Assembly: GCA_032718475.1 (NCBI GenBank)
Contig: JAUCBJ010002846.1
Span: 1-64,000 of the forward strand
Origin: Nemertoderma westbladi
Taxonomy: Eukaryota > Animalia > Xenacoelomorpha
Length of the DNA stretch: 64,000 nucleotides
Reading direction: 5' to 3'
In this document: positions 1 through 64,000 of the stretch, in pieces
Numbering within the stretch: position 1 is the first letter of the stretch
Layout of the letters: the number at the start of each line of letters is the position of its first letter
The notes under the pieces: model-generated
Database searches by the model: none
Told to the model about the DNA's origin: nothing
Seen by the model: the letters and a program-made list of their open reading frames with translations, nothing else
Translations under genes and position numbers: made by a program

Positions 1-1103
1 AACCTGTTTACTAACTATCCCCCCATCTAACCTGTTTTCTAACTACCCCCCCCCATCTAACCTGTTTACTAACTATCCCCCCCCCATCTAACCTGTTTAC
101 TAACTATCCCCCCATCTAACCTGTTTTCTAACTATCCCCCCCATCTAACCTGTTTACTAACTATCTCCCCCATCTAACCTGTTTACTAACTATCTCCCCC
201 CCATCTAACCTGTTTACTAACTATCTCCCCCCATCTAACCTGTTTACTAACTATCCCCCCCATCTAACCTGTTTACTAACTATCTCCCCCCATCTAACCT
301 GTTTACTAACTATCTCCCCCCATCTAACCTGTTTACTAACTATCCCCCCCCCATCTAACCTGTTTACTAACTATCCCCCCCATCTAACCTGTTTACTAAC
401 TATCCCCCCCATCTAACCTGTTTACTAACTATCCCCCCCATCTAACCTGTTTACTAACTATCCCCCCCATCTAACCTGTTTACTAACTATCCCCCCCATC
501 TAACCTGTTTACTAACTATCCCCCCATCTAACCTGTTTACTAACTATCCCCCCCCCCCCATCTAACCTGTTTTCTAACTACCCCCCCCCCCCATCTAACC
601 TCTTTACTAACTATCCCCCCCCCATCTAACCTGTTTACTAACTATCTCCCCCCCATCTAACCTGTTTACTAACTATCCCCCCCATCTAACCTGTTTACTA
701 ACTATCCCCCCCATCTAACCTGTTTACTAACTATCCCCCCCCCCATCTAACCTGTTTACTAACTATCCCCCCCATCTAACCTGTTTACTAACTATCCCCC
801 CCCATCTAACCTGTTTACTAACTATCCCCCATCTAACCTGTTTACTAACTATCCCCCTCATCTAACCTGTTTACTAACTATCTCACCCATCTAACCTGTT
901 TACTAACTATCCCCCCCCCCCCCATCTAACCTGTTTTCTAACTACCCCCCCCCCCCCATCTAACCTCTTTACTAACTATCCCCCATCTAACCTGTTTACT
1001 AACTATCTCCCCCCCCCCCATCTAACCTGTTTACTAACTATCTCCCCCCATCTAACCTGTTTACTAACTATCTCCCCCCATCTAACCTGTTTACTAACTA
1101 TCT
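1..1103. repeat. ~29-bp minisatellite (ATCTAACCTGTTTACTAACTAT + variable C tract), intronic, runs off the left edge of the window
   Basis: Directly visible tandem units whose poly-C tract varies in length; most units contain TACTAAC and a second CTAAC. Confidence 0.95.
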
Positions 1104-1220
1104 ACTAGAATTTTGTTTTTAATTCCGAACACCAGTCAGGATATATACGAGGTACTGTAACATTATCAAGCGCTCAGCATTTTGGAAACACTTTTTAATT
1201 TATTTATTTTCCTATGTCAG

Positions 1221-1537
1221 CACGCAATATTACTGGATATAGGCCGGACGTTCCCAGGTCATCCCTTCTTCAAAACTGAGTACGGTGACGGACAACTGGC
1301 GCTCTACAACGTACTCAAGGCATATTCTCTGATCGATACAGAAGTTGGTTATTGCCAAGGTTTGGGGTTCGTCGCAGGATTTTTATTGCTACACTTGAGC
1401 GAAGAAGAAACTTTAGATACTTTGCGGTTTCTCATGTTTCATCTAGGCCTGCGACGTCTCTACCAACCAAATATGATGAACCTACAGATGCAGATGTACC
1501 GATTGAGTCGACTTATAGTCGACTTATTGAATCCTCT
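1221..1537 (+). CDS. TBC1D1: TBC1D1/TBC1D4-like Rab-GAP, TBC-domain exon ([17 protein letters not shown]...GYCQG...LNP)
   Basis: Acceptor ttttcctatgtcag|, donor CT|gtaagt (phase 2). Contains the TBC catalytic IxxDxxRT arginine finger and YxQ glutamine finger; closely resembles vertebrate TBC1D1/4 (HAILIDLGRTFP...EVGYCQG, from memory). Confidence 0.93.
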
Positions 1538-2292
1538 GTAAGTTGCCCTATTTATCGACTTACTGAATCCTCTGTAAGTTGCCATATTTATCGACTATAG
1601 TCGACTTACTGAATCCTCTGTAAGTTGCCATATTTATCGACTATAGTCGACTTACTGAATCCTCTGTAAGTTGCCATATTTATCAACTATAGTCGACTTA
1701 CTGAATCCTCTGTAAGTTGCCATATTTATCGACTATAGTCGACTTACTGAATCCTCTGTAAGTTGCCCTATTTATCGACTTACTGAATCCTCTGTAAGTT
1801 GCCATATTTATCGACTATAGTCGACTTACTGAATCCTCTGTAAGTTGCCATATTTATCGACTATAGTCGACTTACTGAATCCTCTGTAAGTTGCCCTATT
1901 TATCGACTTACTGAATCCTCTGTAAGTTGCCATATTTATCGACTATAGTCGACTTACTGAATCCTCTGTAAGTTGCCATATTTATCGACTATAGTCGACT
2001 TACTGAATCCTCTGTAAGTTGCCCTATTTATCGACTTACTGAATCCTCTGTAAGTTGCCATATTTATCGACTATAGTCGACTTACTGAATCCTCTGTAAG
2101 TTGCCATATTTATCGACTATAGTCGACTTACTGAATCCTCTGTAAGTTGCCCTATTTATCGACTATAGTCGACTTACTGAATCCCCTGTAAGTTGCCCTA
2201 TTTATCGACTTACTGAATCCTCTGTAAGTTGCCCTATTTATCGACTTATAGTCGACTTACTGAATCCTCTGTAAGTTGCCCTATTTATCGAC
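1509..2292 (+). repeat. 36/46-bp tandem array made of the exon end plus 5' splice donor (GACTTACTGAATCCTCT|GTAAGTTGCC...)
   Basis: 18 GTAAGT copies counted at 1538, 1574, 1620 ... 2224, 2271, each preceded by the exon-terminal sequence. Confidence 0.95.
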
Positions 2293-2327: not shown

Positions 2328-2475
2328 ACATCAGCATTTGGACGGGCACGACGTTGCACCTAGTCTCTACGCTACATCCTGGTTCCTAACCATCTTCTCT
2401 AGTACATTCCCTATGGGTTTCGTGGCTCGAGTTCTAGACCTCATCTTCATACAGGGGCCTCATGTGATATTCAAG
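2328..2475 (+). CDS. TBC1D1: TBC1D1/4-like exon (L)HQHLDGHDVAPSLYATSWFLTIFSSTFPMGFVARVLDLIFIQGPHVIFK
   Basis: attttag| acceptor, AAG|gtaggg donor; phase 2 matches the previous exon; resembles TBC1D1 [27 protein letters not shown]. Confidence 0.93.
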
Positions 2476-2480
2476 GTAGG

Positions 2481-2650
2481 GTAGTGCAAACATGCTAGTG
2501 TAGTGTATAGTTAACCTACTACAGTGTAGTGTAAACATACTACAGTGTAGTGCAAACATACTACAGTGTAGTGCAAACATACTACAGTGTGGTGCAAACA
2601 TATTAGTGTAGTGTAAAGTAAACATACAGTGTAGTGCAAACATACTACAG
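2481..2650. repeat. Degenerate ~21-bp tandem repeat (TAGTGCAAACATACTACAGTG) beginning just after the donor
   Basis: Visible tandem units; explains the spurious MFALHCS-repeat ORF. Confidence 0.85.
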
Positions 2651-2674
2651 TTACAAAAAGTAATTGGTATATTT

Positions 2675-5600
2675 CGATTTAGCTTGCTTTGCTATCATTT
2701 TGTTATTGATTTAGGTTGCTACCACTTTGTTATTGATTTAGGTTACTATCACTTTGTTATTGATTTGGGTTGCTACCACTTTGTTATTGATTTAGGTTGC
2801 TATCACTTTGTTATTGATTTAGGTTGCTATCACTTTGTTATTGATTTAGGTTGCTATCACTTTGTTATTGATTTAAGTTGCTATCACTTTGTTATTGATT
2901 TAGGTTACTATCACTTTGTTATTGATTTAGGTTGCTACCACTTTGTTATTGATTTAGGTTGCTATCACTTTGTTATTGATTTAGGTTGCTATCACTTTGT
3001 TATTGATTTAGGTTGCTATAACTTTGTTATTGATTTAGGTTGCTATCACTTTGTTATTGATTTAGGTTGCTATCACTTTGTTATTGATTTAGGTTGCTAT
3101 CATTTTGTTATTGATTTAGGTTGCTATCACCTTGTTATTGATTTGGGTTGCTATCTCTTTGTTATTGATTTAGGTTGCTATCACTTTGTTATTGATTTAG
3201 GTTGCTATCACTTTGTTATTGATTTAGGTTGCTATCACTTTGTTATTGATTTAGGTTACTATCACTTTGTTATTGATTTGGGTTGCTATCACTTTGTTAT
3301 TGATTTAGGTTGCTACCACTTTGTTATTGATTTAGGTTGCTATCACTTTGTTATTGATTTGGGTTGCTAGCACTTTGTTATTGATTTGGGTTGCTATCAC
3401 TTTGTTATTGATTTAGGTTGCTATCACTTTGTTATTGATTTAGGTTGCTATCACTTCGTTATTGATTTAGGTTGCTATCACTTTGTTATTGATTTAGGTT
3501 GCTATCACTTTGTTATTGATTTAGGTTGCTATCCTATTGTTATTGATTTAGGTTGCTATCATTTTGTTATTGATTTAGGTTGCTATCACTTTGTTATTGA
3601 TTTAGGTTGCTATCACTTTGTTATTGATTTAGGTTGCTATCACTTTGTTATTGATTTAGGTTACTATCACTTTTTTATTGATTTAGGTTGCTATCACTTT
3701 GTTATTGATTTAAGTTGCTATCACTTTGTTATTGATTTAGGTTACTATCACTTTGTTATTGATTTGGGTTGCTATCACTTTGTTATTGATTTAGGTTGCT
3801 ATCACTTTGTTATTGATTTAGGTTGCTATCACTTTGTTATTGATTTGGGTTGCTATCACTTTGTTATTGATTTAGGTTGCTATCACTTTGTTATTGATTT
3901 AGGTTGCTATCACTTTGTTATTGATTTAGGTTACTATCACTTTGTTATTGATTTGGGTTGCTATCACTTTGTTATTGATTTAGGTTGCTATCACTTTGTT
4001 ATTGATTTAGGTTGCTATCACTTTGTTATTGATTTGGGTTGCTAGCACTTTGTTATTGATTTAGGTTGCTATCACTTTGTTATTGATTTAGGTTGCTATC
4101 ACTTTGTTATTGATTTAGGTTGCTATCACTTTGTTATTGATTTAGGTTACTATCACTTTTTTATTGATTTAGGTTGCTATCACTTTGTTATTGATTTAAG
4201 TTGCTATCACTTTGTTATTGATTTAGGTTACTATCACTTTGTTATTGATTTGGGTTGCTATCACTTTGTTATTGATTTAGGTTGCTATCACTTTGTTATT
4301 GATTTAGGTTGCTATCACTTTGTTATTGATTTAGGTTACTATCACTTTTTTATTGATTTAGGTTGCTATCACTTTGTTATTGATTTAGGTTACTATCACT
4401 TTGTTATTGATTTGGGTTGCTATCACTTTGTTATTGATTTAGGTTGCTATCACTTTGTTATTGATTTAGGTTGCTATCACTTTGTTATTGATTTGGGTTG
4501 CTAGCACTTTGTTATTGATTTAGGTTGCTATCACTTTGTTATTGATTTAGGTTGCTATCACTTTGTTATTGATTTAGGTTGCTATCACTTTGTTATTGAT
4601 TTAGGTTACTATCACTTTTTTATTGATTTAGGTTGCTATCACTTTGTTATTGATTTAAGTTGCTATCACTTTGTTATTGATTTAGGTTACTATCACTTTG
4701 TTATTGATTTGGGTTGCTATCACTTTGTTATTGATTTAGGTTGCTATCACTTTGTTATTGATTTAGGTTGCTATCACTTTGTTATTGATTTAGGTTGCTA
4801 TCACTTTGTTATTGATTTAGGTTGCTATCACTTTGTTATTGATTTAGGTTGCTATCACTTTGTTATTGATTTAGGTTGCTATCATTTTGTTATTGATTTA
4901 GGTTGCTATCACCTTGTTATTGATTTGGGTTGCTATCACTTTGTTATTGATTTAGGTTGCTATCACTTTGTTATTGATTTAGGTTGCTATCACTTTGTTA
5001 TTGATTTAGGTTGCTATAATTTTCTTATTGATTTAGGTTGCTATCACTTTGTTATTGATTTAGGTTGCTATCACTTTGTTATTGATTTAGGTTGCTATCA
5101 CTTTGTTATTGATTTGGGTTGCTAGCACTTTGTTATTGATTTGGGTTGCTATCACTCTGTTATTGATTTAGGTTGCTATCACTTTGTTATTGATTTAGGT
5201 TGCTATCACTTTGTTATTGATTTGGGTTGCTATCACTTTGTTATTGATTTAGGTTGCTATCACTTTGTTATTGATTTAGGTTGCTATCACTTTGTTATTG
5301 ATTTAGGTTACTATCACTTTGTTATTGATTTGGGTTGCTATCACTTTGTTATTGATTTAGGTTGCTATCACTTTGTTATTGATTTAGGTTGCTATCATTT
5401 TGTTATTGATTTAGGTTGCTATCACCTTGTTATTGATTTAGGTTGCTATCACTTTGTTATTGATTTAAGTTGCTATCACTTTGTTATTGATTTAGGTTAC
5501 TATCACTTTGTTATTGATTTGGGTTGCTATCACTTTGTTATTGATTTAGGTTGCTATCACTTTGTTATTGATTTAGGTTGCTATCACTTTGTTATTGATT

Positions 5601-8600
5601 TAAGTTGCTATCACTTTGTTATTGATTTAGGTTACTATCACTTTTTTATTGATTTAGGTTGCTATCACTTTGTTATTGATTTAAGTTGCTATCACTTTGT
5701 TATTGATTTAGGTTACTATCACTTTGTTATTGATTTGGGTTGCTATCACTTTGTTATTGATTTAGGTTGCTATCACTTTGTTATTGATTTAGGTTGCTAT
5801 CACTTTGTTATTGATTTAGGTTACTATCACTTTTTTATTGATTTAGGTTGCTATCACTTTGTTTTTGATTTAGGTTACTATCACTTTGTTATTGATTTGG
5901 GTTGCTATCACTTTGTTATTGATATAAGTTGTTATCACTTTGTTATTGATTTAGGTTGCTATCACTTTGTTATTGATTTAGGTTGCTATCACTTTGTTAT
6001 TGATTTAGGTTGCTATCACTTTGTTATTGATTTAGGTTGCTATCATTTTGTTATTGATTTAGGTTGCTATCACCTTGTTATTGATTTGGGTTGCTATCAC
6101 TTTGTTATTGATTTAGGTTGCTATCACTTTGTTATTGATTTAGGTTGCTATCACTTTGTTATTGATTTAGGTTGCTATAATTTTCTTATTGATTTAGGTT
6201 GCTATCACTTTGTTATTGATTTAGGTTGCTATCACTTTGTTATTGATTTAGGTTGCTATCACTTTGTTATTGATTTGGGTTGCTAGCACTTTGTTATTGA
6301 TTTGGGTTGCTATCACTCTGTTATTGATTTAGGTTGCTATCACTTTGTTATTGATTTAGGTTGCTATCACTTTGTTATTGATTTGGGTTGCTATCACTTT
6401 GTTATTGATTTAGGTTGCTATCACTTTGTTATTGATTTGGGTTGCTATCACTTTGTTATTGATTTAGGTTGCTATAATTTTCTTATTGATTTAGGTTGCT
6501 ATCACTTTGTTATTGATTTAGGTTGCTATCACTTTGTTATTGATTTAGGTTGCTATCACTTTGTTATTGATTTGGGTTGCTAGCACTTTGTTATTGATTT
6601 GGGTTGCTATCACTCTGTTATTGATTTAGGTTGCTATCACTTTGTTATTGATTTAGGTTGCTATCACTTTGTTATTGATTTGGGTTGCTATCACTTTGTT
6701 ATTGATTTAGGTTGCTATCACTTTGTTATTGATTTAGGTTGCTATCACTTTGTTATTGATTTAGGTTACTATCACTTTGTTATTGATTTGGGTTGCTATC
6801 ACTTTGTTATTGATTTAGGTTGCTATCACTTTGTTATTGATTTAGGTTGCTATCATTTTGTTATTGATTTAGGTTGCTATCACCTTGTTATTGATTTAGG
6901 TTGCTATCACTTTGTTATTGATTTAAGTTGCTATCACTTTGTTATTGATTTAGGTTACTATCACTTTGTTATTGATTTGGGTTGCTATCACTTTGTTATT
7001 GATTTAGGTTGCTATCACTTTGTTATTGATTTAGGTTGCTATCACTTTGTTATTGATTTAAGTTGCTATCACTTTGTTATTGATTTAGGTTACTATCACT
7101 TTTTTATTGATTTAGGTTGCTATCACTTTGTTATTGATTTAAGTTGCTATCACTTTGTTATTGATTTAGGTTACTATCACTTTGTTATTGATTTGGGTTG
7201 CTATCACCTTGTTATTGATTTAGGTTGCTATCACTTTGTTATTGATTTAAGTTGCTATCACTTTGTTATTGATTTAGGTTACTATCACTTTGTTATTGAT
7301 TTGGGTTGCTATCACTTTGTTATTGATTTAGGTTGCTATCACTTTGTTATTGATTTAGGTTGCTATCACTTTGTTATTGATTTAGGTTACTATCACTTTG
7401 TTATTGATTTAAGTTGCTATCACTTTGTTATTGATTTAGGTTACTATCACTTTTTTATTGATTTAGGTTGCTATCACTTTGTTATTGATTTAAGTTGCTA
7501 TCACTTTGTTATTGATTTAGGTTACTATCACTTTGTTATTGATTTGGGTTGCTATCACTTTGTTATTGATTTAGGTTGCTATCACTTTGTTATTGATTTA
7601 GGTTGCTATCACTTTGTTATTGATTTAGGTTGCTATCACTTTGTTATTGATTTAAGTTGCTATCACTTTGTTATTGATTTAGGTTACTATCACTTTTTTA
7701 TTGATTTAGGTTGCTATCACTTTGTTATTGATTTAAGTTGCTATCACTTTGTTATTGATTTAGGTTACTATCACTTTGTTATTGATTTGGGTTGCTATCA
7801 CTTTGTTATTGATTTAGGTTGCTATCACTTTGTTATTGATTTAGGTTGCTATCACTTTGTTATTGATTTAGGTTACTATCACTTTTTTATTGATTTAGGT
7901 TGCTATCACTTTGTTTTTGATTTAGGTTACTATCACTTTGTTATTGATTTGGGTTGCTATCACTTTGTTATTGATATAAGTTGTTATCACTTTGTTATTG
8001 ATTTAGGTTGCTATCACTTTGTTATTGATTTAGGTTGCTATCACTTTGTTATTGATTTAGGTTGCTATCACTTTGTTATTGATTTAGGTTGCTATCATTT
8101 TGTTATTGATTTAGGTTGCTATCACCTTGTTATTGATTTGGGTTGCTATCACTTTGTTATTGATTTAGGTTGCTATCACTTTGTTATTGATTTAGGTTGC
8201 TATCACTTTGTTATTGATTTAGGTTGCTATAATTTTCTTATTGATTTAGGTTGCTATCACTTTGTTATTGATTTAGGTTGCTATCACTTTGTTATTGATT
8301 TAGGTTGCTATCACTTTGTTATTGATTTGGGTTGCTAGCACTTTGTTATTGATTTGGGTTGCTATCACTCTGTTATTGATTTAGGTTGCTATCACTTTGT
8401 TATTGATTTAGGTTGCTATCACTTTGTTATTGATTTGGGTTGCTATCACTTTGTTATTGATTTAGGTTGCTATCACTTTGTTATTGATTTGGGTTGCTAT
8501 CACTTTGTTATTGATTTAGGTTGCTATAATTTTCTTATTGATTTAGGTTGCTATCACTTTGTTATTGATTTAGGTTGCTATCACTTTGTTATTGATTTAG

Positions 8601-11600
8601 GTTGCTATCACTTTGTTATTGATTTGGGTTGCTAGCACTTTGTTATTGATTTGGGTTGCTATCACTCTGTTATTGATTTAGGTTGCTATCACTTTGTTAT
8701 TGATTTAGGTTGCTATCACTTTGTTATTGATTTGGGTTGCTATCACTTTGTTATTGATTTAGGTTGCTATCACTTTGTTATTGATTTAGGTTGCTATCAC
8801 TTTGTTATTGATTTAGGTTACTATCACTTTGTTATTGATTTGGGTTGCTATCACTTTGTTATTGATTTAGGTTGCTATCACTTTGTTATTGATTTAGGTT
8901 GCTATCATTTTGTTATTGATTTAGGTTGCTATCACCTTGTTATTGATTTAGGTTGCTATCACTTTGTTATTGATTTAAGTTGCTATCACTTTGTTATTGA
9001 TTTAGGTTACTATCACTTTGTTATTGATTTGGGTTGCTATCACTTTGTTATTGATTTAGGTTGCTATCACTTTGTTATTGATTTAGGTTGCTATCACTTT
9101 GTTATTGATTTAAGTTGCTATCACTTTGTTATTGATTTAGGTTACTATCACTTTTTTATTGATTTAGGTTGCTATCACTTTGTTATTGATTTAAGTTGCT
9201 ATCACTTTGTTATTGATTTAGGTTGCTATCACTTTGTTATTGATTTAGGTTGCTATCACTTTGTTATTGATTTGGGTTGCTAGCACTTTGTTATTGATTT
9301 GGGTTGCTATCACTCTGTTATTGATTTAGGTTGCTATCACTTTGTTATTGATTTAGGTTGCTATCACTTTGTTATTGATTTGGGTTGCTATCACTTTGTT
9401 ATTGATTTAGGTTGCTATCACTTTGTTATTGATTTAGGTTGCTATCACTTTGTTATTGATTTAGGTTACTATCACTTTGTTATTGATTTGGGTTGCTATC
9501 ACTTTGTTATTGATTTAGGTTGCTATCACTTTGTTATTGATTTAGGTTGCTATCATTTTGTTATTGATTTAGGTTGCTATCACCTTGTTATTGATTTAGG
9601 TTGCTATCACTTTGTTATTGATTTAAGTTGCTATCACTTTGTTATTGATTTAGGTTACTATCACTTTGTTATTGATTTGGGTTGCTATCACTTTGTTATT
9701 GATTTAGGTTGCTATCACTTTGTTATTGATTTAGGTTGCTATCACTTTGTTATTGATTTAAGTTGCTATCACTTTGTTATTGATTTAGGTTACTATCACT
9801 TTTTTATTGATTTAGGTTGCTATCACTTTGTTATTGATTTAAGTTGCTATCACTTTGTTATTGATTTAGGTTACTATCACTTTGTTATTGATTTGGGTTG
9901 CTATCACTTTGTTATTGATTTAGGTTGCTATCACTTTGTTATTGATTTAGGTTGCTATCACTTTGTTATTGATTTAGGTTACTATCACTTTTTTATTGAT
10001 TTAGGTTGCTATCACTTTGTTTTTGATTTAGGTTACTATCACTTTGTTATTGATTTGGGTTGCTATCACTTTGTTATTGATATAAGTTGTTATCACTTTG
10101 TTATTGATTTAGGTTGCTATCACTTTGTTATTGATTTAGGTTGCTATCACTTTGTTATTGATTTAGGTTGCTATCACTTTGTTATTGATTTAGGTTGCTA
10201 TCATTTTGTTATTGATTTAGGTTGCTATCACCTTGTTATTGATTTGGGTTGCTATCACTTTGTTATTGATTTAGGTTGCTATCACTTTGTTATTGATTTA
10301 GGTTGCTATCACTTTGTTATTGATTTAGGTTGCTATAATTTTCTTATTGATTTAGGTTGCTATCACTTTGTTATTGATTTAGGTTGCTATCACTTTGTTA
10401 TTGATTTAGGTTGCTATCACTTTGTTATTGATTTGGGTTGCTAGCACTTTGTTATTGATTTGGGTTGCTATCACTCTGTTATTGATTTAGGTTGCTATCA
10501 CTTTGTTATTGATTTAGGTTGCTATCACTTTGTTATTGATTTGGGTTGCTATCACTTTGTTATTGATTTAGGTTGCTATCACTTTGTTATTGATTTGGGT
10601 TGCTATCACTTTGTTATTGATTTAGGTTGCTATAATTTTCTTATTGATTTAGGTTGCTATCACTTTGTTATTGATTTAGGTTGCTATCACTTTGTTATTG
10701 ATTTAGGTTGCTATCACTTTGTTATTGATTTGGGTTGCTAGCACTTTGTTATTGATTTGGGTTGCTATCACTCTGTTATTGATTTAGGTTGCTATCACTT
10801 TGTTATTGATTTAGGTTGCTATCACTTTGTTATTGATTTGGGTTGCTATCACTTTGTTATTGATTTAGGTTGCTATCACTTTGTTATTGATTTAGGTTGC
10901 TATCACTTTGTTATTGATTTAGGTTACTATCACTTTGTTATTGATTTGGGTTGCTATCACTTTGTTATTGATTTAGGTTGCTATCACTTTGTTATTGATT
11001 TAGGTTGCTATCATTTTGTTATTGATTTAGGTTGCTATCACCTTGTTATTGATTTAGGTTGCTATCACTTTGTTATTGATTTAAGTTGCTATCACTTTGT
11101 TATTGATTTAGGTTACTATCACTTTGTTATTGATTTGGGTTGCTATCACTTTGTTATTGATTTAGGTTGCTATCACTTTGTTATTGATTTAGGTTGCTAT
11201 CACTTTGTTATTGATTTAAGTTGCTATCACTTTGTTATTGATTTAGGTTACTATCACTTTTTTATTGATTTAGGTTGCTATCACTTTGTTATTGATTTAA
11301 GTTGCTATCACTTTGTTATTGATTTAGGTTACTATCACTTTGTTATTGATTTGGGTTGCTATCACTTTGTTATTGATTTAGGTTGCTATCACTTTGTTAT
11401 TGATTTAGGTTGCTATCACTTTGTTATTGATTTAGGTTACTATCACTTTTTTATTGATTTAGGTTGCTATCACTTTGTTTTTGATTTAGGTTACTATCAC
11501 TTTGTTATTGATTTGGGTTGCTATCACTTTGTTATTGATATAAGTTGTTATCACTTTGTTATTGATTTAGGTTGCTATCACTTTGTTATTGATTTAGGTT

Positions 11601-14450: not shown

Positions 14451-14564
14451 ACCTTTTACCAAGGGAATCTCATGTTTTGTGAAAACTTTGAGACATTAGT
14501 TACAGTTCTCAAGGAGAAAATTAATAAATTACCCGACTTACCCGTTGAAACGTTCCTTTCTCAG
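14433..14564 (+). CDS. TBC1D1: TBC1D1/4-like exon VAITLLTFYQGNLMFCENFETLVTVLKEKINKLPDLPVETFLSQ
   Basis: 132 bp, phase 0/0, gatttag| acceptor and CAG|gttagt donor; aligns with TBC1D1 VALSLL...ENLETIVDFIK...TINQ. Confidence 0.9.
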
Positions 14565-15786: not shown

Positions 15787-16150
15787 CAGACACTATATAA
15801 CATTGGAGGTGTCTCATTGGACCCCCAAGATTGATGTCAATAAAGCCGCTTCAGCTTCGCAGGGCATTGTTTTCTCCATCAGGAACAGCCTGTGCACAAT
15901 CTTGTGTGTATAATCTTGTGTGCACAATCTTGTGTGCACAATCTTGTGTGTATAATCTTGTGTGCACAATCTTGTGTGTATAATCTTGTGTGCACAATCT
16001 TGTGTGTATAATCTTGTGTGCACAATCTTGTGTGTATAATCTTGTGTGCACAATCTTGTGTGTATAATCTTGTGTGCACAATCTTGTGCTTTCCAGCCTC
16101 ATGGAAAAAATAAGCAAGGTGGATAGAACATGACGCGTATACTTGTCTTG
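15787..16150 (+). mobile_element. Degenerate RTE-like LINE 3' fragment (FAGHCF..QEQPVHNLV..QPHG) interrupted by a 14-bp repeat
   Basis: Nucleotide and peptide similarity to the minus-strand fragment at 17854-18143. Confidence 0.6.
15891..16089. repeat. 14/28-bp tandem repeat (TGTGCACAATCTTG / TGTGTATAATCTTG)
   Basis: Visible alternating 14-bp units. Confidence 0.92.
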
Positions 16151-31112: not shown

Positions 31113-31113
31113 C

Positions 31114-49504: not shown

Positions 49505-49698
49505 ATGTAAGTTGTCCTCGAAGGGAGCGCGCCACTTCAGATATCAACTTCGCAATGGATATACCGGGGCTCCATCAGACTTACAGCAGTTCGGTTGAGG
49601 AACTAAGTTCAGCAGAAACTAGTCCAACTATAGAGAATATTACGCGTGCGGTCTTCCGAACTGACATCACTCATCCTAGCAGCCAAAATATGTACTGA
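49505..49698 (+). CDS. TBC1D1: Probable terminal coding exon of the TBC1D1/4-like gene: (D)VSCPRRERATSDINF...SSQNMY*
   Basis: T-rich acceptor ttttattggtttag|AT; phase 1 complements the G left by exon 20246-20417 (GAT); open to TGA. No recognisable homology. Confidence 0.55.
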
Positions 49699-49934
49699 AC
49701 CTAATACCGGTACTAAACCTAAAACCTAATACCAGTATTAAACCTAATATCGGTGCTAAACCTAATACCGGTACTAAACCTAATACCGGTACTAAACCTA
49801 ATACCGGTACTAAACCTAATACCGGTACTAAACCTAATACCGGTACTAAACCTAATACCGGTACTAAACCTAATACCGGTACTAAACCTAATACCGGTAC
49901 TAAACCTAATACCGGTACTAAACCTACCGGTACT
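49692..49934. repeat. 18-bp tandem repeat (GTACTAAACCTAATACCG), first unit overlapping the putative stop codon
   Basis: About 13 visible units. Confidence 0.92.
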
Positions 49935-50044: not shown

Positions 50045-50448
50045 TATGAAGCGCCGTTTATGCCAAAACTATCTGAATAAATATTATACTCAAGATGTAT
50101 CTAAATCCGAGAATTTATAATCTTACAGTCTTAAAAGTTGTAACAGCGGGAAATCTAAAATGTTATTTTCCTTTCCCTTTATAGTTAGTGTAATGTGTTA
50201 GTGCCATTTTAAATTTCCCGTCGTTTCATATTTTAATACTTTCTCGGCCGAGAATCTCGCAAACTCGGCCGAGAAAAACTCGGCCGAGAAAAACTCGGCC
50301 GAGAAATCTCGGCCGATCGGCCAAGAAAAACTCGGCCAAGAAAACTCGGCCGAGAATTTAGATACATCTTAAGTATAATATTGTTTATTCACACGCATCT
50401 TGAGTATAATATTTATTCAGATAGTTTTGGCATAAACGGCGCCTCATA
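50045..50448. mobile_element. MITE-like element with ~55-bp TIRs and internal palindromic CTCGGCCGAG repeats
   Basis: TATGAAGCGCCGTTTATGCCAAAACTATCTGAATAAATATTATACTCAAGATG inverted at ~50395-50448. Confidence 0.75.
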
Positions 50449-51418: not shown

Positions 51419-54400
51419 GTATGCCAAGCTAGCTTACTTCTTGGGTCGGCCCACGACAGTGGTACCCGTATGCTAATCTAGCTTACTTCTTGGCTCGGCC
51501 CACGACAGTGGTACCCGTATGCTAATCTAGCTTACTTCTTGGCTCGGCCCACGACAGTGGGACCCGTATGCTAATCTAGCTTACTTCTTGGCTCGCCCCA
51601 CGACAGTGGTACCCGTATGCTAATCTAGCTTACTTCTTGGCTCGGCCCACGACAGTGGGACCCGTATGCTAATCTAGCTTACTTCTTGGCTCGGCCCACG
51701 ACAGTGGGACCCGTATGCTAATCTAGCTTACTTCTTGGCTCGCCCCACGACAGTGGTACCCGTATGCTAATCTAGCTTACTTCTTGGCTCGGCCCACGAC
51801 AGTGGTACCCGTATGCTAATCTAGCTTACTTCTTGGCTCGGCCCACGACAGTGGGACCCGTATGCTAATCTAGCTTACTTCTTGGCTCGCCCCACGACAG
51901 TGGTACCCGTATGCTAATCTAGCTTACTTCTTGGCTCGGCCCACGACAGTGGTACCCGTATGCTAATCTAGCTTACTTCCTGGCTCGCCCCACGACAGTG
52001 GTACCCGTATGCTAATCTAGCTTACTTCTTGGCTCGCCCCACGACAGTGGTACCCGTTTGCCAAGCTAGCTTACTTCTTGGCTCGGCCCACGACAGTGGT
52101 ACCCGTATGCTAATCTAGCTTACTTCTTGGCTCGGCCCACGACAGTGGGACCCGTATGCTAATCTAGCTTACTTCTTGGCTCGCCCCACGACAGTGGTAC
52201 CCGTATGCTAATCTAGCTTACTTCTTGGCTCGGCCCACGACAGTGGTACCCGTATGCTAATCTAGCTTACTTCCTGGCTCGCCCCACGACAGTGGTACCC
52301 GTATGCTAATTTAGCTTATTTCTTGGCTCGGCCCACGACAGTGGTACCCGTATGCCAAGCTAGCTTACTTCTTGGCTCGTCCCATGACAGTGGTACCCGT
52401 ATGCCAAGCTAGCTTACTTTTTGGCTCGCCCCACAACAGTGGTACCCGTATGCCAAGCTAGCTTACTTCTTGGCTCGCCCCACGACAGTGGTACCCGTAT
52501 GCCAAGCTAGCTTCTTCTTTACTTCTTGGCTCGCCCCACGACGGTACCCGTATGCCAAGCTAGCTTACTTCTTGGCTCGCCCCACGACAGCGGTACCCGT
52601 ATGCTAATCTAGCTTACTTCTTGGCTCGGCCCACGACAGTGGTACCCGTATGCCAAGCTAGCTTACTTCTTGGCTCGCCCCACGACAGTGGTACCCGTAT
52701 GCCAAGCTAGCTTACTTCTTGGCTCGCCCCACGACGGTACCCGTATGCCAAGCTAGCTTACTTCTTGGCTCGCCCCACGACAGCGGTACCCGTATGCTAA
52801 TCTAGCTTACTTCTTGGCTCGGCCCACGACAGTGGTACCCGTATGCCAAGCTAGCTTACTTGGCTCGCCCCACGACAGTGGTACCCGTATGCCAAGCTAG
52901 CTTACTTCTTGGCTCGCCCCACGACAGTGGTACCCGTATGCTAATCTAGCTTACTTCTTGGCTCGCCCCACGACAGTGGTACCCGTATGCTAATCTAGCT
53001 TATTTCTTGGCTCGCCCCACGACAGTGGTACCCGTATGCCAAGCAGCTTACTTCTTGGCTCGCCCCACGACAGCGGTACCCGTATGCTAATCTAGCTTAC
53101 TTCTTGGCTCGCCCCACGACAGTGGTACCCGTATGCCAAGCTAGCTTACTTCTTGGCTCGCCCCACGACAGCGGTACCCGTATGCCAATCTAGCTTACTT
53201 CTTGGCTCGCCCCACGACAGCGGTACCCGTATGCCAATCTAGCTTACTTCTTGGCTCGCCCCACGACAGTGGTACCCGTATGCCAAGCTAGCTTACTTCT
53301 TGGCTCGCCCCACGACAGTGGTACCCGTATGCCAATCTAGCTTACTTCTTGGCTCGCCCCACGACAGTGGTACCCGTATGCCAATCTAGCTTACTTCTTG
53401 GCTCGCCCCACGACAGTGGTACCCGTATGCCAAGCTAGCTTACTTCTTGGCTCGCCCCACGACAGCGGTACCCGTATGCCAATCTAGCTTACTTCTTGGC
53501 TCGGCCCACGACAGTGGTACCCGTATGCTAATCTAGCTTACTTCTTGGCTCGGCCCACGACAGCGGTACCCGTATGCCAATCTAGCTTACTTCTTGGCTC
53601 GGCCCACGACAGTGGTACCCGTATGCTAATCTAGCTTACTTCTTGGCTCGGCCCACGACAGTGGTACCCGTATGCCAAGCTAGCTTACTTATTGGCTCGC
53701 CCCACGACAGTGGTACCCGTATGCCAAGCTAGCTTACTTATTGGCTCGCCCCACGACAGTGGTACCCGTATGCTAAGCTAGCTTACTTCTTGGCTCGCCC
53801 CACGACAGTTGTACCCCTATGCTAATCTAGCTTACTTCTTGGTTCGCCCCACGACAGTGGTACCCGTATGCCAAGCTAGCTTACTTCTTGGCTCGCCCCA
53901 CGACAGCGGTACCCGTATGCCAAGCTAGCTTACGTCTTGGCTCGCCCCACGACAGTGGTACCCGTATGCTAATCTAGCTTATTTCTTGGCTCGCCCCACG
54001 ACAGCGGTACCCGTATGCTAATCTAGCTTACTTCTTGGCTCGCCCCACGGCAGTGGTACCCGTATGCTAATCTAGCTTATTTCTTGGCTCGCCCCACGAC
54101 AGCGGTACCCGTATGCTAATCTAGCTTACTTCTTGGATCGGCCCACGACAGTGGTACCCGTATGCTAATCTAGCTTACTTCCTGGCTCGCCCCATGACAG
54201 TGGTACCCGTATGCCAAGCTAGCTTATTTCTTGGCTCGCCCCACGACAGTGGTACCCGTATGCTAATCTAGCTTATTTCTTGGCTCGCCCCACGACAGCG
54301 GTATCCGTATGCCAAGCTAGCTTACTTCTTGGCTCGCCCCACGACAGTGGTACCCGTATGCCAAGCTAGCTTACTTCTTGGCTCGCCCCACGACAGTGGT

Positions 54401-57400
54401 ACCCGTATGCCAAGCTAGCTTACTTCTTGGCTCGCCCCACGACAGTGGTACCCGTATGCTAATCTAGCTTACTTCTTGGCTCGGCCCACGACAGTGGTAC
54501 CCGTATGCTAATCTAGCTTACTTCTTGGCTCGCACCACGACAGTGGTACCCGTATGCCAATCTAGCTTACTTCTTGGCTCGCCCCACGACAGTGGTACCC
54601 GTATGCTAATCTAGCTTACTTCTTGGCTCGGCCCACGACAGTGGTACCCGTATGCTAATCTAGCTTACTTCTTGGATCGGCCCACGACAGTGGTACCCGT
54701 ATGCTAATCTAGCTTACTTCTTGGCTCGGCCCACGACAGTGGTACCCATATGCTAATCTAGCTTACTTCTTGGCTCGCACCACGACAGTGGTACCCGTAT
54801 GCCAATCTAGCTTACTTCTTGGCTCGCCCCACGACAGTGGTACCCGTATGCTAAGCTAGCTTACTTCTTGGCTCGCCCCACGACAGTGGTACCCGTATGC
54901 TAAGCTAGCTTATTTCTTGGCTCGGCCCACGACAGTGGTACCTGTATGCTAAGCTAGCTTACTTCTTGGCTCGGCCCACGACAGTGGTGCCCGTATGCTA
55001 AGCTCGCCTACTTCGTTGCTCGCCCCACGACAGTGGTACCCGTATGCTAATCTAGCTTACTTCTTGGCTCGGCCCACGACAGTGGTACCCGTATGCTGAG
55101 CTAGCTTACTTCTTGGCTCGGCCCACGACAGTGGTACCCGTATGCTAATCTAGCTTACTTCTTGGCTCGGCCCACGACAGTGGTACCCGTATGCTGAGCT
55201 AGCTTACTTCTTGGCTCGGCCCACGACAGCGGTACCCGTATGCCAAGCTAGCTTACTTCTTGACTCGCCCCACGACAGTGGTACCCGTATGCTAATCTAG
55301 CTTACTTCTTGGCTCGGCCCACGACAGTGGTACCCGTATGCTAATCTAGCTTACTTCTTGGCTCGCCCCACGACAGTGGTACCCGTATGCTAATCTAGCT
55401 TATTTCTTGGCTCGCCCCACGACAGTGGTACCCGTATGCCAAGCAGCTTACTTCTTGGCTCGCCCCACGACAGCGGTACCCGTATGCTAATCTAGCTTAC
55501 TTCTTGGCTCGCCCCACGACAGTGGTACCCGTATGCCAAGCTAGCTTACTTCTTGGCTCGCCCCACGACAGCGGTACCCGTATGCCAATCTAGCTTACTT
55601 CTTGGCTCGCCCCACGACAGCGGTACCCGTATGCCAATCTAGCTTACTTCTTGGCTCGCCCCACGACAGTGGTACCCGTATGCCAAGCTAGCTTACTTCT
55701 TGGCTCGCCCCACGACAGTGGTACCCGTATGCCAATCTAGCTTACTTCTTGGCTCGCCCCACGACAGTGGTACCCGTATGCCAATCTAGCTTACTTCTTG
55801 GCTCGCCCCACGACAGTGGTACCCGTATGCCAAGCTAGCTTACTTCTTGGCTCGCCCCACGACAGCGGTACCCGTATGCCAATCTAGCTTACTTCTTGGC
55901 TCGGCCCACGACAGTGGTACCCGTATGCCAAGCTAGCTTACTTATTGGCTCGCCCCACGACAGTGGTACCCGTATGCCAAGCTAGCTTACTTATTGGCTC
56001 GCCCCACGACAGTGGTACCCGTATGCTAAGCTAGCTTACTTCTTGGCTCGCCCCACGACAGTTGTACCCCTATGCTAATCTAGCTTACTTCTTGGTTCGC
56101 CCCACGACAGTGGTACCCGTATGCCAAGCTAGCTTACTTCTTGGCTCGCCCCACGACAGCGGTACCCGTATGCCAAGCTAGCTTACGTCTTGGCTCGCCC
56201 CACGACAGTGGTACCCGTATGCTAATCTAGCTTATTTCTTGGCTCGCCCCACGACAGCGGTACCCGTATGCTAATCTAGCTTACTTCTTGGCTCGCCCCA
56301 CGGCAGTGGTACCCGTATGCTAATCTAGCTTATTTCTTGGCTCGCCCCACGACAGCGGTACCCGTATGCTAATCTAGCTTACTTCTTGGATCGGCCCACG
56401 ACAGTGGTACCCGTATGCTAATCTAGCTTACTTCCTGGCTCGCCCCATGACAGTGGTACCCGTATGCCAAGCTAGCTTATTTCTTGGCTCGCCCCACGAC
56501 AGTGGTACCCGTATGCTAATCTAGCTTATTTCTTGGCTCGCCCCACGACAGCGGTATCCGTATGCCAAGCTAGCTTACTTCTTGGCTCGCCCCACGACAG
56601 TGGTACCCGTATGCCAAGCTAGCTTACTTCTTGGCTCGCCCCACGACAGTGGTACCCGTATGCTAATCTAGCTTACTTCTTGGCTCGGCCCACGACAGCG
56701 GTACCCGTATGCTAATCTAGCTTACTTCTTGGCTCGCCCCACGACAGTGGTACCCGTATACTAAGCTAGCTTACTTCTTGGCTCGCCCCACGACAGTGGT
56801 ACCCGTAAGCTAATCTAGCTTACTTCTTTGCTCGGCCCACGACAGTGGTACCCGTATGCTAATCTAGCTTACTTCTTGGCTCGCCCCACGACAGTGGTAC
56901 CCGTATGCTAATCTAGCTTACTTCTTGGCTCGGCCCACGACAGTGGTACCCGTATGCAATCTAGCTTACTTCTTGGCTCGGCCCACGACAGTGGTACCCG
57001 TATGCTAATCTAGCTTACTTCTTGGCTCGGCCCACGACAGTGGTACCCGTATGCTAATCTAGCTTACTTCTTGGCTCGCCCCACGACAGTGGTACCCGTA
57101 TGCTAATCTAGCTTACTTCTTGGCTCGGCCCACGACAGTGGTACCCGTATGCAATCTAGCTTACTTCTTGGCTCGGCCCACGACAGCGGTACCCGTATGC
57201 TAATCTAGCTTACTTCTTGGCTCGCCCCACGACAGTGGTACCCGTATGCTAATCTAGCTTACTTCTTGGCTCGGCCCACGACAGTGGTACCCGTATGCTA
57301 ATCTAGCTTACTTCTTGGATCGGCCCACGACAGTGGTACCCGTATGCTAATCTAGCTTACTTCTTGGCTCGGCCCACGACAGTGGTACCCATATGCTAAT

Positions 57401-60400
57401 CTAGCTTACTTCTTGGCTCGCACCACGACAGTGGTACCCGTATGCCAATCTAGCTTACTTCTTGGCTCGCCCCACGACAGTGGTACCCGTATGCTAAGCT
57501 AGCTTACTTCTTGGCTCGCCCCACGACAGTGGTACCCGTATGCTAAGCTAGCTTATTTCTTGGCTCGGCCCACGACAGTGGTACCTGTATGCTAAGCTAG
57601 CTTACTTCTTGGCTCGGCCCACGACAGTGGTGCCCGTATGCTAAGCTCGCCTACTTCGTTGCTCGCCCCACGACAGTGGTACCCGTATGCTAATCTAGCT
57701 TACTTCTTGGCTCGGCCCACGACAGTGGTACCCGTATGCTGAGCTAGCTTACTTCTTGGCTCGGCCCACGACAGTGGTACCCGTATGCTAATCTAGCTTA
57801 CTTCTTGGCTCGGCCCACGACAGTGGTACCCGTATGCTGAGCTAGCTTACTTCTTGGCTCGGCCCACGACAGCGGTACCCGTATGCCAAGCTAGCTTACT
57901 TCTTGACTCGCCCCACGACAGTGGTACCCGTATGCTAATTTAGCTTACTTCTTGGCTCGCCCCACGACAGTGGTACCCGTATGCTAATCTAGCTTACTTC
58001 TTGGCTCGCCCCACGACAGTGGTACCCGTATGCTAATCTAGCTTATTTCTTGGCTCGCCCCACGACAGTGGTACCCGTATGCCAAGCAGCTTACTTCTTG
58101 GCTCGCCCCACGACAGCGGTACCCGTATGCTAATCTAGCTTACTTCTTGGCTCGCCCCACGACAGTGGTACCCGTATGCCAAGCTAGCTTACTTCTTGGC
58201 TCGCCCCACGACAGCGGTACCCGTATGCCAATCTAGCTTACTTCTTGGCTCGCCCCACGACAGCGGTACCCGTATGCCAATCTAGCTTACTTCTTGGCTC
58301 GCCCCACGACAGTGGTACCCGTATGCCAAGCTAGCTTACTTCTTGGCTCGCCCCACGACAGTGGTACCCGTATGCCAATCTAGCTTACTTCTTGGCTCGC
58401 CCCACGACAGTGGTACCCGTATGCCAATCTAGCTTACTTCTTGGCTCGCCCCACGACAGTGGTACCCGTATGCCAAGCTAGCTTACTTCTTGGCTCGCCC
58501 CACGACAGCGGTACCCGTATGCCAATCTAGCTTACTTCTTGGCTCGGCCCACGACAGTGGTACCCGTATGCTAATCTAGCTTACTTCTTGGCTCGGCCCA
58601 CGACAGCGGTACCCGTATGCCAATCTAGCTTACTTCTTGGCTCGGCCCACGACAGTGGTACCCGTATGCTAATCTAGCTTACTTCTTGGCTCGGCCCACG
58701 ACAGTGGTACCCGTATGCCAAGCTAGCTTACTTATTGGCTCGCCCCACGACAGTGGTACCCGTATGCCAAGCTAGCTTACTTATTGGCTCGCCCCACGAC
58801 AGTGGTACCCGTATGCTAAGCTAGCTTACTTCTTGGCTCGCCCCACGACAGTTGTACCCCTATGCTAATCTAGCTTACTTCTTGGTTCGCCCCACGACAG
58901 TGGTACCCGTATGCCAAGCTAGCTTACTTCTTGGCTCGCCCCACGACAGCGGTACCCGTATGCCAAGCTAGCTTACGTCTTGGCTCGCCCCACGACAGTG
59001 GTACCCGTATGCTAATCTAGCTTATTTCTTGGCTCGCCCCACGACAGCGGTACCCGTATGCTAATCTAGCTTACTTCTTGGCTCGCCCCACGGCAGTGGT
59101 ACCCGTATGCTAATCTAGCTTATTTCTTGGCTCGCCCCACGACAGCGGTACCCGTATGCTAATCTAGCTTACTTCTTGGATCGGCCCACGACAGTGGTAC
59201 CCGTATGCTAATCTAGCTTACTTCCTGGCTCGCCCCATGACAGTGGTACCCGTATGCCAAGCTAGCTTATTTCTTGGCTCGCCCCACGACAGTGGTACCC
59301 GTATGCTAATCTAGCTTATTTCTTGGCTCGCCCCACGACAGCGGTATCCGTATGCCAAGCTAGCTTACTTCTTGGCTCGCCCCACGACAGTGGTACCCGT
59401 ATGCCAAGCTAGCTTACTTCTTGGCTCGCCCCACGACAGTGGTACCCGTATGCCAAGCTAGCTTACTTCTTGGCTCGCCCCACGACAGTGGTACCCGTAT
59501 GCTAATCTAGCTTACTTCTTGGCTCGGCCCACGACAGCGGTACCCGTATGCTAATCTAGCTTACTTCTTGGCTCGCCCCACGACAGTGGTACCCGTATAC
59601 TAAGCTAGCTTACTTCTTGGCTCGCCCCACGACAGTGGTACCCGTAAGCTAATCTAGCTTACTTCTTTGCTCGGCCCACGACAGTGGTACCCGTATGCTA
59701 ATCTAGCTTACTTCTTGGCTCGCCCCACGACAGTGGTACCCGTATGCTAATCTAGCTTACTTCTTGGCTCGGCCCACGACAGTGGTACCCGTATGCAATC
59801 TAGCTTACTTCTTGGCTCGGCCCACGACAGTGGTACCCGTATGCTAATCTAGCTTACTTCTTGGCTCGGCCCACGACAGTGGTACCCGTATGCTAATCTA
59901 GCTTACTTCTTGGCTCGCCCCACGACAGTGGTACCCGTATGCTAATCTAGCTTACTTCTTGGCTCGGCCCACGACAGTGGTACCCGTATGCAATCTAGCT
60001 TACTTCTTGGCTCGGCCCACGACAGCGGTACCCGTATGCTAATCTAGCTTACTTCTTGGCTCGCCCCACGACAGTGGTACCCGTATGCTAATCTAGCTTA
60101 CTTCTTGGCTCGGCCCACGACAGTGGTACCCGTATGCTAATCTAGCTTACTTCTTGGATCGGCCCACGACAGTGGTACCCGTATGCTAATCTAGCTTACT
60201 TCTTGGCTCGGCCCACGACAGTGGTACCCATATGCTAATCTAGCTTACTTCTTGGCTCGCACCACGACAGTGGTACCCGTATGCCAATCTAGCTTACTTC
60301 TTGGCTCGCCCCACGACAGTGGTACCCGTATGCTAAGCTAGCTTACTTCTTGGCTCGCCCCACGACAGTGGTACCCGTATGCTAAGCTAGCTTACTTCCT

Positions 60401-63400
60401 GGCTCGCCCCATGACAGTGGTACCCGTATGCCAAGCTAGCTTATTTCTTGGCTCGCCCCACGACAGTGGTACCCGTATGCTAATCTAGCTTATTTCTTGG
60501 CTCGCCCCACGACAGCGGTACCGTATGCCAAGCTAGCTTACTTCTTGGCTCGCCCCACGACAGTGGTACCCGTATGCCAAGCTAGCTTACTTCTTGGCTC
60601 GCCCCACGACAGTGGTACCCGTATGCTAATCTAGCTTACTTCTTGGCTCGGCCCACGACAGCGGTACCCGTATGCTAATCTAGCTTACTTCTTGGCTCGC
60701 CCCACGACAGTGGTACCCGTATGCTAAGCTAGCTTACTTCTTGGCTCGCCCCACGACAGTGGTACCCGTATGCTAATCTAGCTTACTTCTTTGCTCGGCC
60801 CACGACAGTGGTACCCGTATGCTAATCTAGCTTACTTCTTGGCTCGCCCCACGACAGTGGTACCCGTATGCTAATCTAGCTTACTTCTTGGCTCGGCCCA
60901 CGACAGTGGTACCCGTATGCAATCTAGCTTACTTCTTGGCTCGGCCCACGACAGTGGTACCCGTATGCTAATCTAGCTTACTTCTTGGCTCGGCCCACGA
61001 CAGTGGTACCCGTATGCTAATCTAGCTTACTTCTTGGCTCGCCCCACGACAGTGGTACCCGTATGCTAATCTAGCTTACTTCTTGGCTCGGCCCACGACA
61101 GTGGTACCCGTATGCAATCTAGCTTACTTCTTGGCTCGGCCCACGACAGCGGTACCCGTATGCTAATCTAGCTTACTTCTTGGCTCGCCCCACGACAGTG
61201 GTACCCGTATGCTAATCTAGCTTACTTCTTGGCTCGGCCCACGACAGTGGTACCCGTATGCTAATCTAGCTTACTTCTTGGATCGGCCCACGACAGTGGT
61301 ACCCGTATGCTAATCTAGCTTACTTCTTGGCTCGGCCCACGACAGTGGTACCCATATGCTAATCTAGCTTACTTCTTGGCTCGCACCACGACAGTGGTAC
61401 CCGTATGCCAATCTAGCTTACTTCTTGGCTCGCCCCACGACAGTGGTACCCGTATGCTAAGCTAGCTTACTTCTTGGCTCGCCCCACGACAGTGGTACCC
61501 GTATGCTAAGCTAGCTTATTTCTTGGCTCGGCCCACGACAGTGGTACCTGTATGCTAAGCTAGCTTACTTCTTGGCTCGGCCCACGACAGTGGTGCCCGT
61601 ATGCTAAGCTCGCCTACTTCGTTGCTCGCCCCACGACAGTGGTACCCGTATGCTAATCTAGCTTACTTCTTGGCTCGGCCCACGACAGTGGTACCCGTAT
61701 GCTGAGCTAGCTTACTTCTTGGCTCGGCCCACGACAGTGGTACCCGTATGCTAATCTAGCTTACTTCTTGGCTCGGCCCACGACAGTGGTACCCGTATGC
61801 TGAGCTAGCTTACTTCTTGGCTCGGCCCACGACAGCGGTACCCGTATGCCAAGCTAGCTTACTTCTTGACTCGCCCCACGACAGTGGTACCCGTATGCTA
61901 ATCTAGCTTACTTCTTGGCTCGCCCCACGACAGTGGTACCCGTATGCTAATCTAGCTTACTTCTTGGCTCGCCCCACGACAGTGGTACCCGTATGCTAAT
62001 CTAGCTTATTTCTTGGCTCGCCCCACGACAGTGGTACCCGTATGCCAAGCAGCTTACTTCTTGGCTCGCCCCACGACAGCGGTACCCGTATGCTAATCTA
62101 GCTTACTTCTTGGCTCGCCCCACGACAGTGGTACCCGTATGCCAAGCTAGCTTACTTCTTGGCTCGCCCCACGACAGCGGTACCCGTATGCCAATCTAGC
62201 TTACTTCTTGGCTCGCCCCACGACAGCGGTACCCGTATGCCAATCTAGCTTACTTCTTGGCTCGCCCCACGACAGTGGTACCCGTATGCCAAGCTAGCTT
62301 ACTTCTTGGCTCGCCCCACGACAGTGGTACCCGTATGCCAATCTAGCTTACTTCTTGGCTCGCCCCACGACAGTGGTACCCGTATGCCAATCTAGCTTAC
62401 TTCTTGGCTCGCCCCACGACAGTGGTACCCGTATGCCAAGCTAGCTTACTTCTTGGCTCGCCCCACGACAGCGGTACCCGTATGCCAATCTAGCTTACTT
62501 CTTGGCTCGGCCCACGACAGTGGTACCCGTATGCTAATCTAGCTTACTTCTTGGCTCGGCCCACGACAGCGGTACCCGTATGCCAATCTAGCTTACTTCT
62601 TGGCTCGGCCCACGACAGTGGTACCCGTATGCTAATCTAGCTTACTTCTTGGCTCGGCCCACGACAGTGGTACCCGTATGCCAAGCTAGCTTACTTATTG
62701 GCTCGCCCCACGACAGTGGTACCCGTATGCCAAGCTAGCTTACTTATTGGCTCGCCCCACGACAGTGGTACCCGTATGCTAAGCTAGCTTACTTCTTGGC
62801 TCGCCCCACGACAGTTGTACCCCTATGCTAATCTAGCTTACTTCTTGGTTCGCCCCACGACAGTGGTACCCGTATGCCAAGCTAGCTTACTTCTTGGCTC
62901 GCCCCACGACAGCGGTACCCGTATGCCAAGCTAGCTTACGTCTTGGCTCGCCCCACGACAGTGGTACCCGTATGCTAATCTAGCTTATTTCTTGGCTCGC
63001 CCCACGACAGCGGTACCCGTATGCTAATCTAGCTTACTTCTTGGCTCGCCCCACGGCAGTGGTACCCGTATGCTAATCTAGCTTATTTCTTGGCTCGCCC
63101 CACGACAGCGGTACCCGTATGCTAATCTAGCTTACTTCTTGGATCGGCCCACGACAGTGGTACCCGTATGCTAATCTAGCTTACTTCCTGGCTCGCCCCA
63201 TGACAGTGGTACCCGTATGCCAAGCTAGCTTATTTCTTGGCTCGCCCCACGACAGTGGTACCCGTATGCTAATCTAGCTTATTTCTTGGCTCGCCCCACG
63301 ACAGCGGTATCCGTATGCCAAGCTAGCTTACTTCTTGGCTCGCCCCACGACAGTGGTACCCGTATGCCAAGCTAGCTTACTTCTTGGCTCGCCCCACGAC

Positions 63401-64000
63401 AGTGGTACCCGTATGCTAATCTAGCTTACTTCTTGGCTCGGCCCACGACAGCGGTACCCGTATGCTAATCTAGCTTACTTCTTGGCTCGCCCCACGACAG
63501 TGGTACCCGTATACTAAGCTAGCTTACTTCTTGGCTCGCCCCACGACAGTGGTACCCGTAAGCTAATCTAGCTTACTTCTTTGCTCGGCCCACGACAGTG
63601 GTACCCGTATGCTAATCTAGCTTACTTCTTGGCTCGCCCCACGACAGTGGTACCCGTATGCTAATCTAGCTTACTTCTTGGCTCGGCCCACGACAGTGGT
63701 ACCCGTATGCAATCTAGCTTACTTCTTGGCTCGGCCCACGACAGTGGTACCCGTATGCTAATCTAGCTTACTTCTTGGCTCGGCCCACGACAGTGGTACC
63801 CGTATGCTAATCTAGCTTACTTCTTGGCTCGCCCCACGACAGTGGTACCCGTATGCTAATCTAGCTTACTTCTTGGCTCGGCCCACGACAGTGGTACCCG
63901 TATGCAATCTAGCTTACTTCTTGGCTCGGCCCACGACAGCGGTACCCGTATGCTAATCTAGCTTACTTCTTGGCTCGCCCCACGACAGTGGTACCCGTAT
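51419..64000. repeat. 49-bp satellite (GCTAATCTAGCTTACTTCTTGGCTCGGCCCACGACAGTGGTACCCGTAT), >250 copies, with higher-order structure; runs off the right edge
   Basis: Period of 49; variant monomers recur at kb-scale spacings. Confidence 0.97.

Follow-up and report, generated by a model that had tools for sequence, protein, structure and literature searches.

Junction-straddling tandem arrays in the introns of a TBC1D1/TBC1D4-type gene of Nemertoderma westbladi

The host gene and the arrays at exons A and C

The stretch of DNA described here, 64,000 nucleotides (nt) of contig JAUCBJ010002846.1 of Nemertoderma westbladi (assembly GCA_032718475.1) and called the window below, carries on its plus strand the 3′ portion of a gene that homology identifies as an animal TBC1D1/TBC1D4 Rab-GAP. 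Tandem arrays make up 43,612 of its 64,000 bases (68%), and 14 independent arrays were counted. An earlier reading of the same sequence, referred to here as the original prediction, had named six of them as lying at exon borders or splicing signals, and all six are present, nearly where it had placed them. Of the remaining eight, one has 50-nt units, and the other seven coincide with no supported junction. The features are listed in Table 1.

Exons A–E are joined by GT-AG splicing into a stop-free, conserved open frame that can be aligned with oyster TBC1D4, and they are the only five matches of a profile made from 39 homologues with the query left out. In a tree of 46 proteins, the host protein lies on a long branch of unsettled placement, with a best identity of 57%; the animal is fast-evolving. 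Homology supports ten junctions in the window, seven of which have no array. The donors at 14565, 16682, and 20418 all read GTTAGT; they are three of the five supported donors and possibly represent a signature of the lineage. A scan of the window against Rfam gave no matches at the gathering score. The 37 related loci found in metagenome contigs are distant TBC genes, none of them of this species; two (L027:4358-4423 and L031:10273-10318) carry a 20-nt tandem repeat of 2–3 copies about 54 nt behind the matched TBC exon.

The array at exon A spans its donor (1537/1538), as had been claimed. Each unit consists of the start of the intron and the end of the exon, and the first of the 18 donor copies, at 1538, is the real one, the other 17 being decoys that read GTAAGT. 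Coding exon A contains an 11-nt tandem repeat at 1509-1530, which provides two copies of the microhomology and explains why the array has units of 36 and 47 nt. In its single-copy form, intron A–B would have 57 nt (2271-2327); it now measures 790 nt, having likely grown about 14-fold.

The claim of an array at an acceptor, placed at 2675-14450, holds equally well. This array spans the acceptor of exon C (14432/14433), and its last unit is the real start of that exon. Among its 435 units, a copy number that rests on one assembled sequence, there are 318 in-register decoy acceptors, and TAG stands at the end of 319 of the 436 units parsed, so that the AG has been kept by many units and lost by others. 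A degenerate ancestral acceptor is found at 2682. The fraction of units with AG varies between 0.66 and 0.82 across tenths of the array, with the last six units matching the consensus; the AG is kept right up to exon C, and decoy AGs have therefore not been purged near the real acceptor. The array also has a higher-order structure, in which 80 identical units recur at a lag of 154 units. Its expansion was evidently continued by block duplication, and these blocks suggest turnover of array length. Collapsed to one unit, intron B–C has 57 nt, compared with 11,957 nt at present, a likely increase of about 210-fold.

The units at donor A and acceptor C are copies of the junctions of the gene itself. 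Each of 13 array units was compared with the 64-kb window and had no match beyond its own array, and the 27-nt and 46-nt units, being exon-derived, were born at the locus. Among all the donor and acceptor copies, the gap pattern of the query at the A/B and B/C joints is matched, in 40 of 40 homologue rows, by the first donor and the last acceptor alone, and no others rebuild the conserved protein. The conserved frame likewise indicates that the terminal sites are those that would be used.

Table 1. Coordinates of the exons, tandem arrays, and inserted element in the window
Feature	Position	Strand	Remarks
29-nt array, intron before exon A	1-1102	+	~37 copies, truncated where the window begins; 33 TACTAAC copies
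Exon A	1221-1537	+	RabGAP-TBC, Pfam PF00566 E=9e-26; PDB 3qye (human TBC1D1) E=9e-43; query-free profile E=1e-56
Donor-spanning array	1509-2292	+	36-, 46-, and 47-nt units; donor present 18 times; seed with 5-nt microhomology
Exon B	2328-2475	+	TBC domain; query-free profile match
21-nt array	2481-2651	+	~7 degenerate copies, 5 nt behind donor B, all intronic
Acceptor-spanning 27-nt array	2674-14450	+	435 units; 9 intron + 18 exon C bases
Exon C	14433-14564	+	First 18 nt are the terminal copy of the 27-nt array; query-free profile E=8e-6
Exon D	16514-16681	+	Query-free profile match; both edges without array
Exon E	20246-20417	+	Coiled coil; query-free profile E=9e-4; both edges without array
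50-nt array, three blocks	20914-43142	+	236 acceptor-like copies; 22-kb system
LINE insertion in 50-nt array	28793-34273	-	13-nt target-site duplication; reverse-transcriptase open reading frame 29010-31133, 708 aa, PF00078 E=1.5e-28
Candidate 29-nt TBC1D1/4 microexon	43118-43146	+	Inferred; terminal copy of the 50-nt array, then GTAATT donor
Putative last exon F	49505-49698	+	Ser/Thr-rich; the frame requires skipping of the microexon
18-nt array	49693-49934	+	Seed spans the putative stop codon and has 5-nt microhomology
49-nt array	51419-64000	-	257 copies, truncated where the window ends; parent exon would lie beyond base 64000

The 50-nt array and the other arrays

The unit of the 50-nt array consists of 26 nt closing in a pyrimidine tract and CAG, followed by 24 nt of the candidate microexon, and the array probably spans the acceptor of this 29-nt exon. 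Its last copy extends 5 nt beyond the array into a CAG|GTAATT donor. The probability that an acceptor and a donor of this kind occur together at any array end is about 0.005-0.05. The microexon peptide improves the alignment to 32 homologue tails; only 1.7% of 600 controls do more, compared with 22% for the start of exon F. The array is split by the long interspersed nuclear element (LINE) and by a partial duplicate of it at 38147-40628, which is 99.6% identical and lacks about 3 kb; the LINE insertion postdates the array.

The array placed by the original prediction at a stop codon does span a TGA (49696-49698), provided that exon F is real and joined directly to exon E. Exon F is weakly supported, having no profile match and reaching p <= 0.05 with 3 of 22 homologue tails, and an equally long open frame follows 68 of 778 YAG sites. 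If the microexon is included before exon F, translation ends two codons into F, which would place the 18-nt array in the 3′ untranslated region instead of at the stop. The search for an exon that would restore the frame from the microexon to exon F yielded a single poor candidate, which was rejected. A 43-nt array with an 8-nt microhomology is located at 43616-43838 and holds both a CAG that resembles an acceptor and a TAG. Positions 43619-43666 may represent a terminal exon of 15 codons following the microexon, in which case the array would count as another one at a junction.

The three other named arrays lie at the two ends of the window and behind exon B. The 29-nt array had been described as sitting at a branch-point-like motif, which finds no support: 118 nt separate its end from the acceptor at 1221, a TTAAT branch-like motif is nearer (-23), and an exact TACTAAC is expected in some array unit with a probability of about 9%. 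A 43-nt exon at 1109-1151, following this array, was considered and rejected, its translation being unlike the residues before exon A in 11 homologues and its donor weak (3/7). The array said to start just behind the donor at 2475/2476 does so, at a distance of 5 nt, yet its 21-nt units contain no exon sequence. The 49-nt array holds 223 minus-strand donor-like motifs, with a GC-rich putative exon side. On the same strand, a 230-codon open frame with hydrophobic stretches lies in a GC-richer patch at 44142-44831. This frame had no match in Pfam, and all of its leads in the Atlas were below 0.9; having no convincing match, it gives no support for a minus-strand gene behind the 49-nt array.

Further repeats and mobile elements were seen in the window. 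A 60-nt array at 47166-47571 is open in one frame and would encode a 20-residue repeat rich in Pro, Ala, and Ser. An inverted repeat at 50045-50448, with 62-nt arms at 92%, surrounds a 15-nt array and is likely a miniature inverted-repeat transposable element with its own tandem repeat. Introns C–D and D–E contain inverted-repeat elements (17017-19607, 15796-18135) with arms of about 550 nt at 94-100% and a 1.4-kb core; a 31-nt terminal motif is found at 15796 and, inverted, at 18105, and these elements are likely non-autonomous DNA transposons.

Enrichment at junctions, origin of the arrays, and the role of the decoys

The original prediction had read the arrays as a recurrent pattern at exon borders. 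This stands insofar as two arrays straddle supported splice sites; seven arrays lie at no supported junction, and two of the named cases consist of a motif only. For the enrichment test, each array was collapsed to one unit, giving 12,699 nt in which 14 seeds were set against the ten supported junctions. The null leaves out insertions within the 50-nt array and is thus conservative; the window had been flagged beforehand for the junction-array pattern, and the test is post hoc. Two of the 14 seeds span a junction, compared with 0.39 expected (P=0.056), and three lie no more than 10 nt from one, compared with 0.49 (P=0.012). When exon F and the microexon are added, there are five such seeds versus 0.70 expected (P=0.0005). 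The enrichment in the window is modest. A literature search, with subscription journals mostly outside its coverage and supplements excluded, found no genome-wide test of tandem arrays at exon borders.

In a repeat-rich genome, two of 14 arrays may land on splice sites by chance and the others be over-read as motifs, as could be argued from the strict test, which misses 0.05, and from the six named cases, two of which are motif-only and one conditional. Such a coincidence is nevertheless very unlikely in view of the P values of the looser tests (0.012 to 0.0005) and of the joint probability given above for the microexon case. In addition, clustered arrays of such kind have been published for amphioxus (PMC3087553).

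The same excess of seeds at junctions would be expected if these were true hot spots, with duplications at exon borders started by nicks coupled to transcription or splicing, by R-loops, or by nucleosome edges, and with the introns of the lineage growing mainly in this way. The introns that hold the 27- and 50-nt arrays do consist mostly of them, and the 50-nt array is a probable further case beyond the six named ones. However, seven of ten supported junctions have no array, half of the arrays (7/14) are at no supported junction, and the excess comes from a window flagged for this very pattern. Moreover, both strict cases occur in 57-nt introns, where straddling is predicted by geometry: a 21-47-nt seed that touches an intron of 57 nt spans a junction 52-89% of the time, compared with 2-4% for a 2-kb intron, so that a seed in such a short intron is expected to straddle a splice site. 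Hot spots are thus an unlikely explanation.

The explanation that we favour, with a probability of about 0.68, is that the arrays are mirage minisatellites, in which duplications straddling junctions of the TBC1D1/4 gene were amplified, likely in a neutral manner, and were likely tolerated through continued use of the exon-side terminal site. Short tandem duplications of the ordinary kind would provide the seeds, frequently where microhomologies exist, and most of the seeds measured would fit the microhomology-mediated duplication described in PMC13167724. Duplications entirely within coding exons would be purged, and in a 57-nt intron most of the remaining 21-47-nt duplications would unavoidably hit a splice site, so that no targeting would be needed. 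Slippage and unequal exchange would enlarge the seed, with the extra units read as intron. The spliceosome would select its sites across the exon, taking the first donor and the last acceptor and leaving the decoys mostly silent; mis-spliced RNA, if any, would be cleared by nonsense-mediated decay, and attachment to an exon may shield the arrays from deletion. The original prediction had proposed local duplication and amplification, with a terminal copy that preserves the exon, arrays that extend on the intron side, and inflation of the intron, all of which agrees with the changes from 57 to 790 nt and from 57 to 11,957 nt.

Microhomology of 5-8 nt, compared with a background of 1.2%, was found in five of the eight seeds measured and speaks for this explanation. 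Several points weigh against it. The seeds measured represent eight of the 14 arrays, and their ends were chosen by eye. The seeds of the 27- and 50-nt arrays, the two largest at junctions, have only 0-1 nt, as does the 21-nt seed. Three arrays lie in or on two 57-nt introns, compared with 14 in about 12.7 kb of collapsed sequence, and the excess at junctions goes beyond what geometry alone provides and needs effects of age or retention. These three seeds may reflect the age or retention of exon-flanking DNA, or else a true hot spot. Finally, a 57-nt ancestral intron is expected to have been intron-defined, which would favour the wrong sites.

The decoys of both arrays lead to stops. All 17 decoy donors run into the same one, the TAA inside the real donor, and for each of the 318 decoy acceptors the frame is closed within 8-26 codons by an acceptor TAG or TAA. 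The original prediction had assumed that junction duplications survive because their decoys are poisoned in this way, and had proposed a test for stops above expectation. The assumption is not supported. When junction-spanning duplications of the TBC1D1/4 gene were simulated, 90% of 9,275 were poisoned, and 100% at the sites of donor A and acceptor C, as a result of the splice-site consensus and the intron phase. Stops are therefore the default and explain nothing, and in human F7 the pseudo-sites without a premature stop are likewise silent and unused (PMC1557585).

Exon C begins with GT, and 318 of the 435 unit borders are intact AG|GT. Such points might be used, allowing recursive splicing of the 12-kb array or a tuning of expression that scales with copy number through nonsense-mediated decay. 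The 60 units with the more donor-like start GTTACT are all preceded by an intact TAG, and not one of them comes after the 116 AG-less borders; these units, however, come from a few block duplications and are not independent, and the regenerated donor has no G at +5. AG|GT is also common at phase-0 junctions. Published mirages leave splicing undisturbed (PMC3087553, PMC3902484), and use of the decoys here appears highly improbable. A more far-reaching proposal, rather unlikely in our view, is that in this lineage minimal 57-nt introns reach multi-kb lengths genome-wide and mainly through satellites seeded on their own splice sites, above what geometry gives, with the spliceosome ratcheting through hundreds of identical decoy acceptors as recursive AG|GT points. 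If this were true, the array of 435 units would offer a natural experiment on how 3′ splice sites are chosen and on how intron definition gives way to exon definition.

Relation to known systems

Under the favoured explanation, mirages would extend to another animal lineage and to the size of a satellite, with an intron of 57 nt likely expanded about 210-fold through the copying of its own acceptor. The analysis adds two null models, namely that short ancestral introns make straddling of junctions expected, and that stops in decoys come free with the splice-site consensus. Given RNA data, the 318 near-identical consecutive acceptors would provide a clean test of last-acceptor choice.

The route itself is less novel than had been supposed, since the original prediction suggested that it may be little described and the class has already been named: amphioxus mirages are tandem repeats across exon-intron boundaries, at 5′ and 3′ edges, with splicing reported as unaffected (PMC3087553, PMC3902484). 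Their hosts are Adh3 and the globins BflGb6 and BflGb9 (PMC3087553), as well as PGBD5 and troponin C (PMC3902484). With three features shared at the level of sequence, the arrays at donor A and acceptor C of N. westbladi would belong to this class as an unusually large case, probably together with the 50-nt array; the 21- and 29-nt arrays span no boundary. As in amphioxus, copies of the boundary occur at both edges, AG or GT is present in many units, the authentic copy is on the exon side, and several arrays occur in one gene; the TBC1D1/4 array units fall within the range of 10-72 bp of Adh3. The systems differ in scale, with 3-6 units in BflGb6 compared with 435 units over 11.8 kb in the TBC1D1/4 acceptor array, and in that undisturbed splicing and length instability were shown in amphioxus, whereas the arrays described here are known from one sequence alone. 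The host lies outside Branchiostoma, the B. lanceolatum orthologue having 49% identity to the host protein.

The 37-bp variable-number tandem repeat in intron 7 of human F7 is similar in that its first unit spans the exon-intron border and identical donors follow downstream (PMC1557585). Only the most upstream of these donors is productive, and the counterpart here, assigned from sequence, is the array at 1509-2292. The F7 repeat differs in having 5-9 sites, compared with 18 in TBC1D1/4, in being confined to the donor side, and in that the choice of site was tested experimentally. A report on repeats that modulate human splicing (PMC10078293) has, in its available text, no bearing on the TBC1D1/4 arrays.

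Microhomology-mediated tandem duplications resemble five of the eight measured TBC1D1/4 seeds in their short flanking microhomology and are mostly neutral, depleted in coding regions, and expandable (PMC13167724). They are, however, a general process that is not specific to junctions, and three of the eight TBC1D1/4 seeds have no microhomology. The giant introns of Drosophila kl-3 and kl-5 consist, like those described here, mostly of tandem repeat (PMC6508621). They contain megabases of simple satellite, whereas the TBC1D1/4 arrays amount to 12-23 kb, and their units arose at the locus as copies of the junctions of the gene itself.

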